Both the position numbers and the translations under genes were made by a program. Under the pieces are notes generated by a model. It was not told the origin of the DNA, searched no databases, and was given only the letters and a program-made list of their open reading frames with translations. From a virus (lineage: Duplodnaviria; Heunggongvirae; Uroviricota; Caudoviricetes), in IMG/VR virus record IMGVR_UViG_638341087_000015, positions 1 to 51,123 of that record: 51,123 bases of DNA; one strand, given 5' to 3'. Position 1 is the stretch's first letter, and every line of letters begins with the position of its first letter. This document shows positions 16,113 through 38,546 of the stretch, in pieces.

Positions 16113-16457
16113 TAACACTTCCTTAATTTTCCCTTAACAATTTAGGGTGCTAAACTTTTTTGCGCAGTTTACACAAAAAAATAGTGCGTACGCAAAAACT
16201 ATCTAACATGATGAGCTTTAACCGGGAAATTTGTATATGTTGTGAGCATAAAGTTGGCTGAGAAATTTAAAACGGGTAGAATGACTGCGGGTGCTTGAGG
16301 CTATCTGCCTCGGGCATGAACACCAAAGGCAGATAGAGAAAAGCCCCAGTTAACATTACGCGTCCTGCAAGACGCTTAACATTAATCTGAGGCCAATTTC
16401 ATGCTTTGCACATGTAGGTTAGCCTCTTACGTGCCGAAAGGCAAGGAGAAGCAGGCT

Positions 16458-16613
16458 ATGAAGCAGCAAAAGGCGATGTTAATCGCCCTGATCGTCATCT
16501 GTTTAACCGTCATAGTGACGGCACTGGTAACGAGGAAAGACCTCTGCGAGGTACGAATCCGAACCGGCCAGACGGAGGTCGCTGTCTTCACAGCTTACGA
16601 ACCTGAGGAGTAA
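16458..16613 (+). CDS. hok: Hok/Gef family type I toxin (51 aa)
   Basis: MKQQKAMLIALIVICLTVIVTALVTRKDLCEVRIRTGQTEVAVFTAYEPEE matches my recollection of HokD/RelF; AAGGAG RBS; GC-rich structured leader and trailer typical of hok mRNAs. Confidence 0.85.
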   Translation: MKQQKAMLIALIVICLTVIVTALVTRKDLCEVRIRTGQTEVAVFTAYEPEE

Positions 16614-18861: not shown

Positions 18862-18937
<76 letters not shown>

Positions 18938-18940
18938 TAT

Positions 18941-19015
<75 letters not shown>

Positions 19016-31815: not shown

Positions 31816-32211
31816 ATGATCACTTACGTGACCTGTGATGACGTTGATAATGCGTTTGGGAACGCCTGGACGAGTGAGAACGCTAAAAATAAAGCTGTTT
31901 TAATGGCTAATGCCTGGCTTAATGGCTTCAACCTGAAAATTAACCCATCCCGTATTCCGGAAGAGGTAAAACTTGCGGGAGCATATGCAGCCAGAATTGC
32001 CTCATTCGGTAAGTTGTTTCAGCAGAAAAATGATTCTGGCGTTGTTATCAGTAAAGCCGTGTCGGCTGACGGGGTCAGTGTATCGAAATCATTTGCTGAA
32101 TTGCCAGCAAACAGCACTGCATTGCTTGAACCCGATTTACAGCTTGCGATAGCACTGCTGAAACCGTACGGACTTAGTCGCTCACAAGTCAGGGTTGTGA
32201 GGGGGGGATGA
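31816..32211 (+). CDS. Head-tail joining / head completion protein (putative)
   Basis: Position in the morphogenesis operon. Confidence 0.4.
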   Translation: MITYVTCDDVDNAFGNAWTSENAKNKAVLMANAWLNGFNLKINPSRIPEEVKLAGAYAARIASFGKLFQQKNDSGVVISKAVSADGVSVSKSFAELPANSTALLEPDLQLAIALLKPYGLSRSQVRVVRGG

Positions 32212-32594
32212 TGGGGCTTCGTGAAGAGATTCAGTCAGAGGTTGCCGCTGCTTTTGATGAGGATTTAGCAGACGCCGTGAGTGATTTTTCTGGTTCTTAC
32301 GTTACGCACCGGAACTGGGATCCTGTGACGGAAACTGGCGGCGAATCTACAGCAACCTATACCGGGCGAGGCGTGTTGACGCGTTATAAGCTGGGCAGAA
32401 TTGATGGGATTAATATTTTGCATGGTGACCTTAAATTAACAGCTCTGGTATGCGAGGTTACGGATAAACCCGCTGTCGGCCATATTATTGAGATTTATGA
32501 TCCTGTATCAAGGCAGTTGCAACGATACGAGGTAATTACAGCGAGTGTAGATCCTTCCGCATCAGTTTACTCAATCCAGTTAAGGAGAGCGTAA
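32208..32594 (+). CDS. Head-tail joining protein (putative)
   Basis: Overlapping start-stop coupling in the morphogenesis operon. Confidence 0.4.
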   Translation: MMGLREEIQSEVAAAFDEDLADAVSDFSGSYVTHRNWDPVTETGGESTATYTGRGVLTRYKLGRIDGINILHGDLKLTALVCEVTDKPAVGHIIEIYDPVSRQLQRYEVITASVDPSASVYSIQLRRA

Positions 32595-33390: not shown

Positions 33391-34353
33391 GTGAGTTCAG
33401 GTGCAAAGGTTATCTCGGCATTTATCCGGGAGACGGTTGCAGGCACTACGCCAGCAAGTGGTGACTGGAGTTTATTAAAACGCACAAGCTGGGGAGTAAA
33501 ACCCACCCAGAATAAAGGCGAAAATAATGAGATTGGTGGCTCCCGGATGGCTCAGGGGGCGACGCCTGGCACTGTGGATGTCGGCGGTGATGTTGGTACC
33601 AAATTTCGCTGGGGTCAACATGATGATTTTCTTGCATCCTGTTTCGGCGCGGAATGGTCAGGCGATTCTCTGACAATGGGGAATGAGCGAATAACATTTT
33701 CTCTGGCGACCTATGCGTCCGATGTCGGAATTGCCTCTGTCGTCAGAGGAGCGCAGGTTGGCTCATGGAAAATGCAGATCCCTAACGACGGCGATATTAC
33801 AGCGACCGTAACCTTTGCCGGACTGGACTGGGAATCAAAGGCCGATGATACGAATTTTATCAAAGACGAACCTGTGGATAGTGCAGGAAAGCTACGTTAT
33901 TCGTTTAAGGAGGTTTCAGCAGTAAGCCTGAATGGTGTTGCCGGAGGTAACGGTTTTTGTATCGACAGTTTTGATATTCAGTTCGATAACAAACTCCAGA
34001 CACAGCGTTGTATCGGGACTGGCTCGCCTTATGCAGGAGCAAATATTCCGACTACTTTTACACCGTCCGGTACGGTGACGCTTTCATGGTCTAAAGCCGC
34101 GTGGGAAATCTGGAGTAAAACACTGACTGGAGAAACAGTTCCGTTCAGCTTCACGCTTTCGAATGGAGAGGGGGCATACACTTTCAGTTTCCCGAAGGTT
34201 CAGGTGTCAGGTGAATGGCCTGACGGCGGTAATACCGATATTATCCAGGTCCAGTTGAGTATTACCGCTGCTGACGAAGCGCCAACTATCACCAGAAAAA
34301 AAGCTTCCCCGGCTGCAGTGATTGCAAAAGCCAGTGCTGAGTCGATTAGTTGA
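33391..34353 (+). CDS. Major tail protein (putative tail tube)
   Basis: 320-aa ORF directly upstream of the tail assembly chaperone pair. Confidence 0.5.
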   Translation: MSSGAKVISAFIRETVAGTTPASGDWSLLKRTSWGVKPTQNKGENNEIGGSRMAQGATPGTVDVGGDVGTKFRWGQHDDFLASCFGAEWSGDSLTMGNERITFSLATYASDVGIASVVRGAQVGSWKMQIPNDGDITATVTFAGLDWESKADDTNFIKDEPVDSAGKLRYSFKEVSAVSLNGVAGGNGFCIDSFDIQFDNKLQTQRCIGTGSPYAGANIPTTFTPSGTVTLSWSKAAWEIWSKTLTGETVPFSFTLSNGEGAYTFSFPKVQVSGEWPDGGNTDIIQVQLSITAADEAPTITRKKASPAAVIAKASAESIS

Positions 34354-34413
34354 TTTTCCGTTATTCCCCCTGTGGTATTGCGCTACAGGGTGGTGTTTTG
34401 AATGAGGTTATAG

Positions 34414-34965
34414 ATGTTTATTCTTGAACAGAAAACTATCATCGGTGGAGAACGCTGGTTTACGCCAATGAAGGACTTAGAACCTATTGCTGGGTTACAA
34501 CTGTTGGTGGCAAGCAGTGATAATGATCAGTATCGCTCCCGTAATGCATTAATCCGTCGCCACATTGAGAAAATGGATGCCAGTTTGCATGTCGGAACGA
34601 AGGCGTTTGATATTGCAAAGGTCGTCGAGGTGGACTCTGTTGATGATTTACTCATTGATAACGCCGCTCGTTATCTGCTGAAAGACTGGAAAGGGGTTGG
34701 AGAGCTGATAGATGGTGTTGAGGTCGCGCTGGAATATACACCAGAAAGAGGTGCTGAGCTGCTCAAGCAGAATCCAGAGTTGTACTGGCAAATCCTTGCA
34801 GAAGCCGCCAGAATCGCCCAGGGAAAAGAGCAGCAAAAGCAGGATACGATAAAAAAGCCATTGCCGCCCAGCGGTGGATATCGGAGTTCGGGGGAGAAAA
34901 GGGTGAAAAGGCAAGGTGGAAACGAGAAAAGCTCAGGTTGCCGCCGCTCCCGGAGCCAGAAATAG
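34414..34965 (+). CDS. Tail assembly chaperone (lambda G analogue)
   Basis: Immediately upstream of the tape measure gene; contains slippery heptamers near its 3-prime end. Confidence 0.6.
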   Translation: MFILEQKTIIGGERWFTPMKDLEPIAGLQLLVASSDNDQYRSRNALIRRHIEKMDASLHVGTKAFDIAKVVEVDSVDDLLIDNAARYLLKDWKGVGELIDGVEVALEYTPERGAELLKQNPELYWQILAEAARIAQGKEQQKQDTIKKPLPPSGGYRSSGEKRVKRQGGNEKSSGCRRSRSQK

Positions 34966-35171
34966 ACCCGGTTATTAGGGAATTGTTGTACGCCTATTCG
35001 GTGATATCCCGTGCCAGGCGTTATGCTGGAATGGCTGGGGTGCCTTTGCCTTTATCTCTGTCAGAGATAAATGAATATTTAGCCACTCATCCGGTATTGA
35101 TTGAGCGCGATGAATTTGAAGCAGTGATCTTTGCACTGGATGACCAGTATTTTCAGGAGCAGTGTGTGTAG
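34414..35171 (+). CDS. Tail assembly chaperone frameshift product (lambda G-T analogue)
   Basis: -1 shift at 34851..34857 or 34821..34827 joins the chaperone frame to ORF 34938..35171. Confidence 0.45.
34851..34857 (+). other. Programmed -1 ribosomal frameshift slippery heptamer A_AAA_AAG
   Basis: Heptamer in the X_XXY_YYZ register of the chaperone frame; a second candidate G_GGA_AAA lies at 34821..34827; the -1 frame stays open to 35171. Confidence 0.5.
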
Positions 35172-35291
35172 TTGTTAATTACGTACACTCTGTTACAGCG
35201 ATGTGATAGTGTCTTTAATTAAATCGATGATGCTCCTGGAGAAAAGCATTGCGTGGCCTCGTAATCGCTATATCTACTATTATGTCGCCTG

Positions 35292-35317
35292 AAACCCACT
35301 TCGGTGGGTTTTTTTTG
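35292..35317 (+). terminator. Intrinsic terminator-like hairpin (UUCG tetraloop plus T-run) upstream of tape measure
   Basis: aaacccac-ttcg-gtgggttt followed by a T-run, in the 165-bp gap between the chaperone pair and tape measure gene. Confidence 0.5.
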
Positions 35318-35336
35318 TTGTCAGGAGTTTTAATAA

Positions 35337-38300
35337 ATGGCAGAGCAGACCTCACGTCTTGCAATAATTATTGATAGCTCTGGAGCGAAAAATAATGCTG
35401 ATAATCTGACCTCATCATTAGTCAAAATGACGCAGGCCGGGGAAACTGCTGCAAATAGCGCAGGGAAAGTGACTAAGGCAACAGAAGACGAGAAGAACGC
35501 GCTCGCAAAATTAAAAGCAGCTATTGATCCAGTTGGTGCCGCAATTGATACTGTCGGTCGACGCTATTCTGAATTAAAGAAATATTTCGATAAAGGGCTT
35601 ATTGATAAAGAAGAATATGAATTTCTTGCCCGTAAACTTAATGAAACCACAGAGGAATTGAGCGGGGTTGCGCAAGCGCAGAGAGAGGCCGAGAAGGCCG
35701 GAAAACTTGCTGCCGCCCAGCAGGAAGCGCAGGCTCAGGCCTTTCAAAGAATGCTGGACAAGATCGACCCTCTGGCTGCGGCGCTAAGAAATCTTGATCA
35801 ACAGCAGGATGAACTTAATGCTGCACTTTTTTCCGGGAAAATAAATGGCTCTCAGTTTGATAATTACAGCCGAAAAATACAGGAAACGCGGCGAGAGCTA
35901 ACAGGAGAGGCTCAGGCAGAACGAGAAGCAGCAAAAGCGCATGATGAACAAGTTGCTGCTTTGCAACGTCTGATTGCTCAACTCGATCCTGTTGGAACAG
36001 CTTTTAACCGCCTGACAGAGCAGCAAAAGCAACTCAGCGAAGCAAAAGCCAAGGGGATGCTTTCTCCTGAAATGTATGAGGAGCTTTCAGGAAAACTCCA
36101 TGCTATGCGGAGTGAGCTTGAGGCTACTCAATCGCAACTCAGCAAAACCGGAATGTCAGCAAAACAAACAGCTTTTGCTATGCGCATGTTGCCTGCACAA
36201 ATGACGGATATTGTTGTTGGGTTGTCCACTGGTCAGTCGCCATTTATGGTGTTAATGCAGCAGGGCGGCCAGCTAAAAGATATGTTCGGTGGGATTGGCC
36301 CGGCGATCAAAGGTGTTGGTTCTTATGTGCTGGGATTAATTAATCCTTTTACCCTGGCCGCAGCAGCCGTTGGCGCCTTGGGGCTAGCTTACTATAAAGG
36401 TTCTCAGGAGCAGGACGAATTTAATAAATCTCTTATTCTTACCGGAAATCAGTTGGGGACAACCAGCGGGCAATTAGCCGATATAGCTCAACGTGCCGGG
36501 GATGCTGCTGATTCGACAACTGGCGCTGCGGCGGCAGTATTAAACCAGCTTGTGCGTTCGGGAAAGGTCGCGAGCAGTTCGCTGGAGCAGGTGACGACAG
36601 CGATAGTAAAAACGAGCGAATTAACTGGAATATCGACCGATCAACTGGTTAATAATTTCAATGAAATTGCAAAGGATCCTGTCAGTGCCATATCAAAACT
36701 TAATGATCAGTACCATTTTCTGACACTGGCGACTTATAACCAGATTAAGGCGCTACAGGATGAAGGGAACCAGCAGGAGGCGGCTAGGGTAGCTTCTGAC
36801 GTTTATTCTCAGGCTTTACAGCAGCGTACATCAGAAATCCAGCAAAATCTTGGGCTTCTTGAAAAAGCCTGGGATGGTTTAGCTGGTACAGCGAAAAAAG
36901 CTTGGGATGCAATGCTTGATGTTGGTCGTGTGTCTGGTGGAAATGAGCGTATCACTCAAATCCGCAAGGAGCTTGATTGGATTGATAACGCTGTCGGTGG
37001 AAAAACTGTTTTTGCCTCACGTCGAAAAGAGCTTGAGCAAGAGTTAAACATTCTTCAGCTAACTATGGCGGCTCAGGCAGATATTACTGGGGCCATTTCT
37101 GCAGCAAGTAAAGCTGAGCAAGAACGAATTCAGACTCAACAGGAGGCCGATCGTGTTAACCAACAGTATCTGACTAATGCAGAAAAAAGAAGTAAAGCAA
37201 TCAGGCAGCAGAAGAAGTTTTTGGATGCAGGGGCTATTAGTGAAGAGCAATATAATAATAATATTTCTCGCATTAATGAATTATATAAAGATCCAAAATC
37301 ACCAAAAACACGGAATTATTCAGATGATGCCGCCCAACGAATGATTGACCATCTGAATCAACAGAATGCGTTACTAAGTTCACAAGCTGAATTGACAGTT
37401 AAATTAAGTTCCTCTGAGCAGGAACTGGTTAAGTGGCGCCAGCAAATAGTCGATCTTGAATCTCGTCCGACATCAAAATTAACTAAGGATCAGAAATCGC
37501 TTCTCTTACACCGGGAAGAAATAACCGCGTTGATGGAGAAAAATGTTGCGATTGAAAAAAATAACAGGCTAATCAAGGAGTCAGCCGAAATAGCCGCATG
37601 GCGTAGTTCATTGCAGGCTTCTATTGATAATCATCAGCAGGGGTATGACATTCAGATCGCTGGTTATGGACTTGGCGATAAAAATCAGCAACGTCAGCAG
37701 GAATTACTGCGGATTGAACGTGAATATAACAACCGGCGTCTGCAACTTGAACGTGACTATGCGGATAAATCTCGTGGAATGTCTGAACGTGTTTTTCAGG
37801 AAAAAATACAGGCCCTGAATGATGCTGTGGAGCGGGAAAAAGAAATTATCAGGCAGAAAAATGAGCAGCTCGATATTCAGGCTGGAGACTGGGTAAGTGG
37901 GGCGTCCCAAGGATTCAATAACTGGTTGGATAACACTAAGGATATCAGCGGGCAGATAAAATCAACCACGACTCAGATGTTTGATGGGATGACAGATGCG
38001 CTTGGTGATTTTGTCACGACAGGTAAGGCAAATTTTCGTTCTTTCGCTACCTCCGTGATTTCAGATCTTAGCAGAATAGCATTAAAGGCTTCAATTACCG
38101 GGATTTTCGACAGCATTAGCAACAGTTCTTCTGGGGGAATTTTAGGAACTATCGGAAGTGCTGTTAGTAAATTTATTCCTAATGCAAAGGGCGGTATTTA
38201 TGAGTCTCCATCATTGAGTACATATTCAAACGGTATTTATGATTCCCCGCAATTTTTTGCTTTTGCAAAAGGTGCTGGTGTTTTTGGTGAGGCTGGACCG

Positions 38301-38546
38301 GAAGCTATTATGCCATTAACACGAACTTCCGATGGTTCTCTTGGTGTCAGGGCGATTAATAATAAAGACGGTAATGGAGGCGGAGACATTAATTACTCTC
38401 CTGTATATCAAATTACTATCAAAAATGACGGACAGAATGGAGAGATTGGCCCTCAGGCAATTAGAACACTTATGGGAATGGTTGATCAGCGAGTGCAGGG
38501 CACTCTGTTAAATATGCGACGTGATGGAGGAATATTAAGTGGCTGA
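35337..38546 (+). CDS. Tail tape measure protein (1069 aa)
   Basis: Very long alpha-helical, Ala/Gln-rich protein after the chaperone pair; CAGGAG RBS. Confidence 0.85.

Follow-up and report, generated by a model that had tools for sequence, protein, structure and literature searches.

The open reading frame (ORF) at 34414-34965 of the window and the -1 frame that overlaps it and stops at 35171 very probably form a tail assembly chaperone pair of the G/GT type, in which the heptamer A_AAA_AAG (site 2) would be the slip signal and the heptamer G_GGA_AAA upstream of it (site 1) would be incidental. By the window we mean the whole stretch of DNA that was analyzed, 51,123 nucleotides of a Caudoviricetes virus (IMG/VR record IMGVR_UViG_638341087_000015). 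We give this reading a probability of around 0.85. The features of the locus are the following.

33391..34353, plus strand: tail tube (major tail) protein gene, directly 5' of the chaperone gene; Pfam PF18906 Phage_tube_2, E 2.4e-31, 109.8 bits (cut-off 27).
34414..34965, plus strand: zero-frame chaperone ORF (G analogue, YdaY family) of 183 aa; PHROG 313 match; residues 1-148 conserved.
34821..34827, plus strand: heptamer 1, G_GGA_AAA, in register and not conserved; probably an incidental weak slip site.
34851..34857, plus strand: heptamer 2, A_AAA_AAG, conserved; putative programmed -1 slip site.
34857..35171, plus strand: T-analogue segment in the -1 frame, reached by a slip at site 2, 104 aa and stop; open frame, substitution periodicity, PHROG 1189.
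34858..34965, plus strand: zero-frame C-terminal tail of G, 35 aa, pI 11.4; allele-specific, the usual TAG at 34861-34863 being TTG here.
35291..35320, plus strand: terminator-like hairpin and T8 run, 3' of the T stop and 5' of the tape-measure start.
35337..38546, plus strand: tape-measure protein gene, 1,069 aa, 3' of the chaperone pair; Pfam matches.

The gene order is thus tube, G, T (in the -1 frame) and tape measure, i.e., two overlapping ORFs stand between the tube and the tape-measure genes. The homologue of the gene at 33391-34353 is named 'phage tail tube protein' in RefSeq, and the gene at 35337-38546 matches the Pfam families TMP_2 (E 7.5e-82), Tape_meas_lam_C (E 7.7e-26) and TMP_4 (E 3.4e-24). 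In a profile search, the zero-frame product matched PHROG 313, 'tail assembly chaperone', over residues 6-165 (E 5.3e-47, 161.6 bits). The -1 product matched PHROG 1189 (E 1.6e-35) and also positions 180-246 of the PHROG 313 profile, which are its C-terminal part. The whole length of the G/T region is found at about 92% nucleotide identity in 1,051 E. coli records, and the gene goes by the name of ydaY (92% identical genes, 'protein YdaY' in RefSeq) in 1,073 of the 5,426 complete E. coli genomes. Taken together, the tube and tape-measure neighbours, the matches to PHROG 313 and 1189, the identity with ydaY and the presence of the RalA and sok RNAs (see below) point to a Rac-like lambdoid prophage and its pair of G/GT analogues. 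The original prediction had read the region as a tail chaperone with a -1 frameshift, and this is borne out by the position between tube and tape-measure genes, by PHROG 313 and by the conservation of the -1 frame as coding sequence.

Other searches were less informative. No Pfam family matched the G part, and sequence searches returned neither an NCBIfam match nor a relative in the PDB. The T part scored 18.7-18.8 bits (E 0.0019) against Pfam PF23812 Phage_TAC_18, under the gathering threshold of 27 bits, and only one of six members of the chaperone family matched it at all. A single-sequence AlphaFold2 model of GT had a pLDDT of 46.9, too poor for use. An ORF of 88 aa on the minus strand (34648-34914) gained no support, as codon periodicity there tracks the plus-strand frames. 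An Rfam scan of the window found no RNA family in or near the chaperone region; the Rac-associated RalA sRNA and the sok RNA are also present in the window. The hairpin and T8 run at 35291-35320 are given as context only, since the frameshift does not need them.

Both heptamers can be read directly in the zero frame. GGGAAAA at 34821-34827 falls on the codons CAG GGA AAA (Q136 G137 K138) and AAAAAAG at 34851-34857 on the codons ATA AAA AAG (I146 K147 K148). Hence, both motifs have the form X_XXY_YYZ in the register of the ORF 34414-34965, as the original prediction had it, and they are 10 codons apart from A site to A site. The -1 frame was also correctly described as open from either site: the last upstream stop is a TGA at 34755, and the frame runs uninterrupted from 34758 to the TAG at 35169-35171, so that it is 116 codons long when counted from site 1 and 106 when counted from site 2. 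The original prediction gave the zero frame about 36 codons beyond site 2; this frame extends from 34858 to the stop at 34963-34965, with 36 codons including the stop and 35 sense codons. The fusion expected from a slip at site 2 would carry the junction ...DTIKKAIAAQR (predicted junction peptide ...EQQKQDTIKKAIAAQR), and the one expected from site 1 would carry ...QGKRAAKAGYDKK... (predicted junction peptide ...RAAKAGYDKKAIAAQR).

One might ask how often such motifs arise by chance. The window has 47 ORFs of 100 aa or more that do not overlap one another, with 14,664 codons in all; in these we counted 79 in-register X_XXY_YYZ heptamers, of which 6 are G_GGA_AAA and 3 are A_AAA_AAG. This is about one heptamer per 186 codons, so that about one is expected by chance in an ORF of 183 codons. 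An in-register heptamer by itself is therefore no more than chance. The -1 frame behind the other heptamers of the window is open for 2-60 codons, with the sole exception of an ordinary ATGA gene junction at 32202. The open -1 frame of 106-116 codons behind sites 1 and 2, conserved as coding sequence, is not due to chance.

The evidence that separates the two sites comes from their relatives. We compared about 118 related loci, from Escherichia to Pseudomonas. The close set has 87 loci (five annotated phages, two E. coli chromosomes and 80 IMG/VR contigs); the distant set has 31, from Shigella to Pseudomonas (29 species-representative genomes and two Pseudomonas phages), and goes down to 28-31% protein identity. 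In the close set, all loci but one (86 of 87) have A_AAA_AAG at the counterpart of the site-2 codon pair, and it is unchanged in 14 of the 15 clusters obtained at 95% identity. The lone exception among the close loci, Erwinia phage Gungnir39, has GCA_AAG_TAA at this position, and its -1 frame runs into homologous sequence. At the same codon pair, the distant loci have A_AAA_AAG (14 loci), G_GGA_AAG (6) or G_GAA_AAG (11), and the offset between the two ORFs is -1 in all 31. The A-site AAG is invariant while the residue at codon 147 varies (K, G, E or A), and in the distant loci the base before the P-site codon covaries with it (xxA AAA versus xxG GGA). The residue and the preceding base thus change in concert, and slipperiness and the AAG are kept, which argues for selection on the slipperiness of the motif and not on the protein. 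In the Providencia loci, the -1 frame is closed by stops two codons before site 2, and this means that a slip at any earlier point cannot occur there. The GT fusions predicted at site 2 in six members can be aligned with no gap at the junction, and T145 and K148 are the same in all six. From the sequences compared, site 2 is the one conserved slip signal of the predicted chaperone frameshift.

Substitution patterns locate the change of frame at the same place. In an alignment of 44 sequences, we counted substitutions at zero-frame codon positions 1, 2 and 3, position 2 of the zero frame being the third position of the -1 frame. The counts are 62/46/175 before site 1, 5/2/7 between sites 1 and 2 (where events are few), 15/44/16 from site 2 to 34937, and 41/135/57 beyond 34937. 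In other words, the periodicity is that of the zero frame up to site 2, also in the stretch between the sites, and that of the -1 frame from there on. The last two sets of counts imply that the -1 frame is under purifying selection from site 2 on, including the 27 codons before the TTG at 34938, which annotators take for a start. The coding conservation of the second ORF thus begins at the slip site and not at a start codon of its own, as seen both in the periodicity and in the gap-free GT alignment.

For this phage, we infer the frameshift, its rate and its junction from sequence. Most ribosomes would stay in the zero frame and make the short chaperone, of 183 aa (about 20.6 kDa) in this allele. 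By analogy with the lambda model (PMC5009743), a few percent would slip by -1 at A_AAA_AAG with tRNA-Lys in both the P and the A sites, re-pair on AAA_AAA, and resume with GCC at 34857. The predicted product, GT, would have 252 aa (about 28.8 kDa), and its C-terminal T part would be the conserved -1 product. If lambda is a guide, the N-terminal (G) part, common to both products, would coat or bind the tape-measure protein, and the tube protein would be brought in by the T part.

The 183-aa length of the short chaperone is peculiar to this allele. After heptamer 2, most relatives have CCA TAG, which ends G at 149 aa, and the clade of the window has CCA TTG. The long tail is a separate TAG-to-TTG point change. 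Counted from just after the heptamer, with the stop included, tails have 2, 8, 20, 26 or 36 codons according to the lineage, and no zero-frame periodicity was seen in the segment 34858-34965 of the 44-sequence alignment. Such varied lengths without periodicity suggest that the tail is an unselected read-through of the overlap. One could also think of a decaying prophage gene, in which the lost G stop adds a basic tail of 35 aa, impairs the chaperone and makes both heptamers moot. The exact allele is rare, being found in one of the 5,426 complete E. coli genomes (MEI003), with two records at least 99% identical to it, among the 1,073 genomes with the family. The identical MEI003 allele is flagged by RefSeq as a pseudogene 'missing C-terminus', so this allele could be impaired. 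Against this, zero-frame tails of 20-26 codons are found in Scandinavium, Mixta, several Pseudomonas lineages and one IMG/VR locus (L085), which indicates that tail length is tolerated. Furthermore, the neighbouring tail genes of the window are full length, the allele is retained in six IMG/VR contigs, and the predicted GT product is untouched by the TAG-to-TTG change. We thus regard decay of the gene as unlikely.

Site 1 behaves very differently from site 2 among the relatives. G_GGA_AAA is present in 16 of the 87 close loci and in none of the 31 distant ones. The Gly137 codon is GGT in the majority, GGC, GGG or GGA elsewhere, and GCT (Ala) in one locus; only the GGA state of this four-fold-degenerate codon forms the heptamer. 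With GGT, the -1 frame reads GGG TAA, which places a stop exactly at site 1. GGA at Gly137 would therefore both create heptamer 1 and remove the TAA that closes the -1 frame there. Among the 15 clusters at 95% identity, six have GGA, in some of them mixed with GGC or GGT. Since the codon shifts among synonyms within clusters that are at least 95% identical, it behaves as a neutral four-fold-degenerate site. From these comparisons, G_GGA_AAA at 34821 is an apparently incidental product of silent wobble drift and not a selected signal. The original prediction had offered two heptamers for the frameshift; both are indeed in register and lead to the same open -1 frame, but only A_AAA_AAG is kept in the relatives.

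Published efficiencies allow an estimate of what each site might contribute. In E. coli, -1 frameshifting at G_GGA_AAA was 0.117% with no stimulator, 0.511% with the IS911 stimulators and 17.0% with the IS3 pseudoknot, at A_AAA_AAG 0.291%, 4.26% and 39.0%, and at G_GGA_AAG 0.277%, 3.80% and 43.0% (Sharma et al. 2014, PMC4066793 supplement). By these values site 1 is 2.5- to 8-fold weaker than site 2, which would make it at most a minor, unselected contributor. It may still leak a minor fusion isoform in this allele, and this isoform would differ from the site-2 product at seven residues (139-141 and 143-146). With no stimulator at either site, the published values imply that site 1 could give about one tenth to one quarter of the fusions of this allele, which is not negligible. 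In our search for downstream RNA stimulators, folds of 63-103 nt taken 3' of each site, from the window and four relatives, were no stabler than shuffled sequences (z from +0.4 to +1.1), and RNAalifold predicted 0 conserved pairs among 17 diverse members. As a candidate upstream stimulator resembling a Shine-Dalgarno sequence, we considered the AGGA 6 nt before site 2; it is absent in the Providencia and Pseudomonas relatives and is unsupported.

These data also bear on the idea that both heptamers are functional and selected in tandem, raising or tuning the GT:G ratio or making two GT isoforms. In its favour, the two sites are in register and feed a single open -1 frame, GGA is found again in several clades, and G_GGA_AAA attains 17% when combined with a strong stimulator (PMC4066793). 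The spacing of 10 codons is also suggestive, since slippage at a G_GGA_AAG heptad rises about two-fold when a ribosome is stalled 8-10 codons downstream of it (PMC6815119). However, site 1 is missing in most relatives, the majority form having a -1-frame stop in its stead; the variation of the Gly codon within clusters is what neutral drift predicts; the stretch between the sites evolves as zero-frame coding sequence; and neither folding nor RNAalifold found a pause-inducing structure at site 2. Moreover, the in-phase z-score of G_GGA_AAA in E. coli genes is +5.6 (over-represented) and that of A_AAA_AAG is -10.1 (strongly avoided) (PMC4066793 supplement). Over-representation in phase suggests that G_GGA_AAA is tolerated as harmless. 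Selected tandem sites are thus very unlikely.

A related idea is that the two sites are coupled by collisions. A ribosome dwelling on A_AAA_AAG would hold a trailing ribosome with its A site 10 codons back, on G_GGA_AAA, and boost the slip at site 1. If this were so, GT output would be tied to ribosome load, there would be two GT isoforms that differ at the seven linker residues, and the loss of the nearby zero-frame stop might belong to the same retuning. We consider such coupling highly improbable.

It might also be that no frameshift occurs and that the T part is made alone from an internal start such as the TTG at 34938. The ORF listing of the window does include 34938..35171 with this TTG, and the GenBank and RefSeq records of relatives call a separate 'hypothetical protein' ORF of 46-77 aa. 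Yet the annotated starts disagree among these records, and the purifying selection in the -1 frame begins at site 2, 27 codons before the TTG (15/44/16). Relatives as distant as Pseudomonas retain the -1 peptide KKAIAAQRW.SEFGGE.GEKA.W.REKL, which is encoded in the stretch from site 2 to the TTG, and the slippery motif covaries in such a way that it remains slippery. Production from an internal start is thus extremely unlikely. The same can be said of a change at the RNA level, in which RNA polymerase would slip on the six A in a row of site 2 and give transcripts with one A more or less that encode the fusion: at the same place, the G_GGA_AAG, G_GAA_AAG and GCA_AAG of relatives have runs of only 3-4 A, so the conserved feature is not the homopolymer and would be the slip of tRNA-Lys on A_AAG. 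Efficient slippage by E. coli RNA polymerase needs a run of about 8-9 A or T, which also speaks against slippage at six A. Transcriptional slippage is covered as a recoding mechanism in the review of Atkins et al. (PMC5009743).

A G/GT-type pair with its slip at site 2 matters here mainly for annotation. The YdaY or Rac-type chaperone is found in about one fifth of the complete E. coli genomes (1,073 of 5,426). The public records that we compared have either a short gene and an orphan 'hypothetical protein' or a pseudogene, and none has a frameshift join. A literature search for ydaY returned nothing on a frameshift in the YdaY family. Since the comparative data place the slip at the codon pair homologous to 34852-34857, GT could be annotated across the prophages of Enterobacterales and Pseudomonas. 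The locus leaves the understanding of frameshifting and of tail assembly unchanged. It also offers a small, clear case of selection on slipperiness over the encoded residue, next to a look-alike heptamer that would have arisen by neutral wobble drift.

Among known systems, the slippery heptamer of E. coli dnaX (gamma/tau) is identical to site 2. The dnaX slip relies on the single E. coli tRNA-Lys(mnm5s2UUU) moving from AAG to AAA. It is helped by a Shine-Dalgarno-like stimulator upstream and a hairpin downstream and reaches about 50% frameshift, whereas we found no conserved downstream structure in the window. The downstream folds, RNAalifold and the unconserved AGGA thus give no indication of a stimulated signal of the dnaX type at this locus. 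Furthermore, the frameshift product is the longer one in the chaperone of the window and the shorter one in dnaX.

Closer in context is the cluster A_AAA_AAG_25 (ECs1801, in the Sakai prophage Sp9), labelled 'tail assembly chaperone; [true]' by Sharma et al. 2014 (PMC4066793). As in the window, A_AAA_AAG lies in a chaperone gene between the major tail and tape-measure genes, and the -1 product is the longer one. Unlike the allele of the window, ECs1801 has a stop straight after the heptamer (AAA AAG TAG). We considered whether the two might be the same family: BLASTP gave no alignment at E <= 100, and ECs1801 belongs to an unrelated protein family. The direct homologue of the chaperone is the YdaY family of the E. 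coli K-12 Rac prophage, which has the same A_AAA_AAG at the same codon; the K-12 copy of ydaY is itself 5'-truncated. The common E. coli allele of ydaY has GGT at Gly137 and thus a -1-frame TAA in place of heptamer 1, whereas the window has GGA. Its TAG, one codon after the heptamer, ends G at 149 aa, compared with 183 aa in the window.

The best-known system of this kind is G/GT of phage lambda, where a -1 frameshift at G_GGA_AAG gives a G:GT ratio of 30:1 (Levin et al. 1993, Xu et al. 2004, 2013, 2014, as summarised in PMC5009743). There, tail assembly requires both products, and neither is present in virions (PMC5009743). We searched for homology with lambda G or T by hhalign of the family alignment; the probability was 0.1%, i.e., there is no detectable similarity. 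The two loci also differ in the heptamer (G_GGA_AAG in lambda, A_AAA_AAG in the window) and in the zero frame past the slip, which in lambda, read directly, has 5 sense codons and then TGA, compared with 35 codons in the allele of the window. The T and H genes of lambda overlap, whereas in the window a spacer of 165 nt with the terminator-like hairpin precedes the tape-measure gene. The likeness lies in the position between the major tail and tape-measure genes and in the lack of a conserved stimulatory RNA structure at the window locus. It extends to the motif itself, as lambda's exact heptamer G_GGA_AAG stands at the homologous position in the Pantoea, Mixta and some of the Pseudomonas relatives of the window. 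The locus is a further, so far unannotated case of the well-known lambda G/GT kind.

No public annotation in the records of the related loci L001, L002, L003, L006, and L007 joins G, the zero-frame tail assembly chaperone ORF of the YdaY family (34414-34965 in the window), to T, the segment in the -1 frame (34857-35171). These records have instead a 'protein YdaY' or a 'hypothetical protein' accompanied by a separate short ORF, and the annotated start of the latter is inconsistent between records. The allele identical to that of the window (L006, in E. coli MEI003) is flagged as a pseudogene with a 'missing C-terminus'.

Relatives of the G/T pair were compared around site 2, the conserved -1 slip site (A_AAA_AAG, 34851-34857). 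In Erwinia phage Gungnir39 (locus L005), the homologous position (1701-1712) has no heptamer: it reads GCA_AAG, immediately followed by TAA, and the -1 frame runs on into conserved T sequence. A frameshift in the phage would need a tetramer-type slip on A_AAG beside the stop codon. In the viral record IMGVR_UViG_2513237361_000013 (L008), G and T share one frame in tblastn. This is owing to single-base length changes, relative to near-identical relatives, in one stretch of G and one of A located 3' of site 2 (around 1985-2030); these changes are probably homopolymer sequencing errors.

The window also encodes tRNAs, one of which may bear on slippage at heptamer 1 (G_GGA_AAA, 34821-34827):

18862-18937, tRNA-Thr(UGU) gene
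18941-19015, tRNA-Gly(UCC) gene

The P-site codon of this heptamer, GGA, is decoded by tRNA-Gly(UCC), for which pairing with GGG after a -1 slip is also possible.

Another in-register heptamer, G_GGG_GGA, occurs within 32202-32211, one codon 5' of the stop of the ORF 31816-32211. The next gene, at 32208-32594, lies in the -1 frame relative to this ORF, via an ATGA overlap. The junction most likely reflects ordinary translational coupling rather than recoding.

Terminator-like hairpins lie on both sides of the G/T pair:

34368-34390, terminator-like hairpin on one side
35291-35320, terminator-like hairpin on the other side, GAAACCCAC-TTCG-GTGGGTTTT followed by a T run

The latter is placed within the 165-nt gap ahead of the tape-measure gene (35337-38546). 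A hairpin and T run directly 3' of the T stop were also found in the related loci L001, L004, L005, L074, and L107. Because this arrangement recurs in diverged relatives whose stem sequences differ, it suggests a conserved transcript-level element within the late operon.

Finally, Rfam matches revealed RNA antitoxins elsewhere in the window:

1557-1735, RalA sRNA, the RalR antitoxin (215 bits)
16289-16463, sok antitoxin RNA (116 bits)

These two RNA-antitoxin loci mark the window as a Rac-like prophage region.
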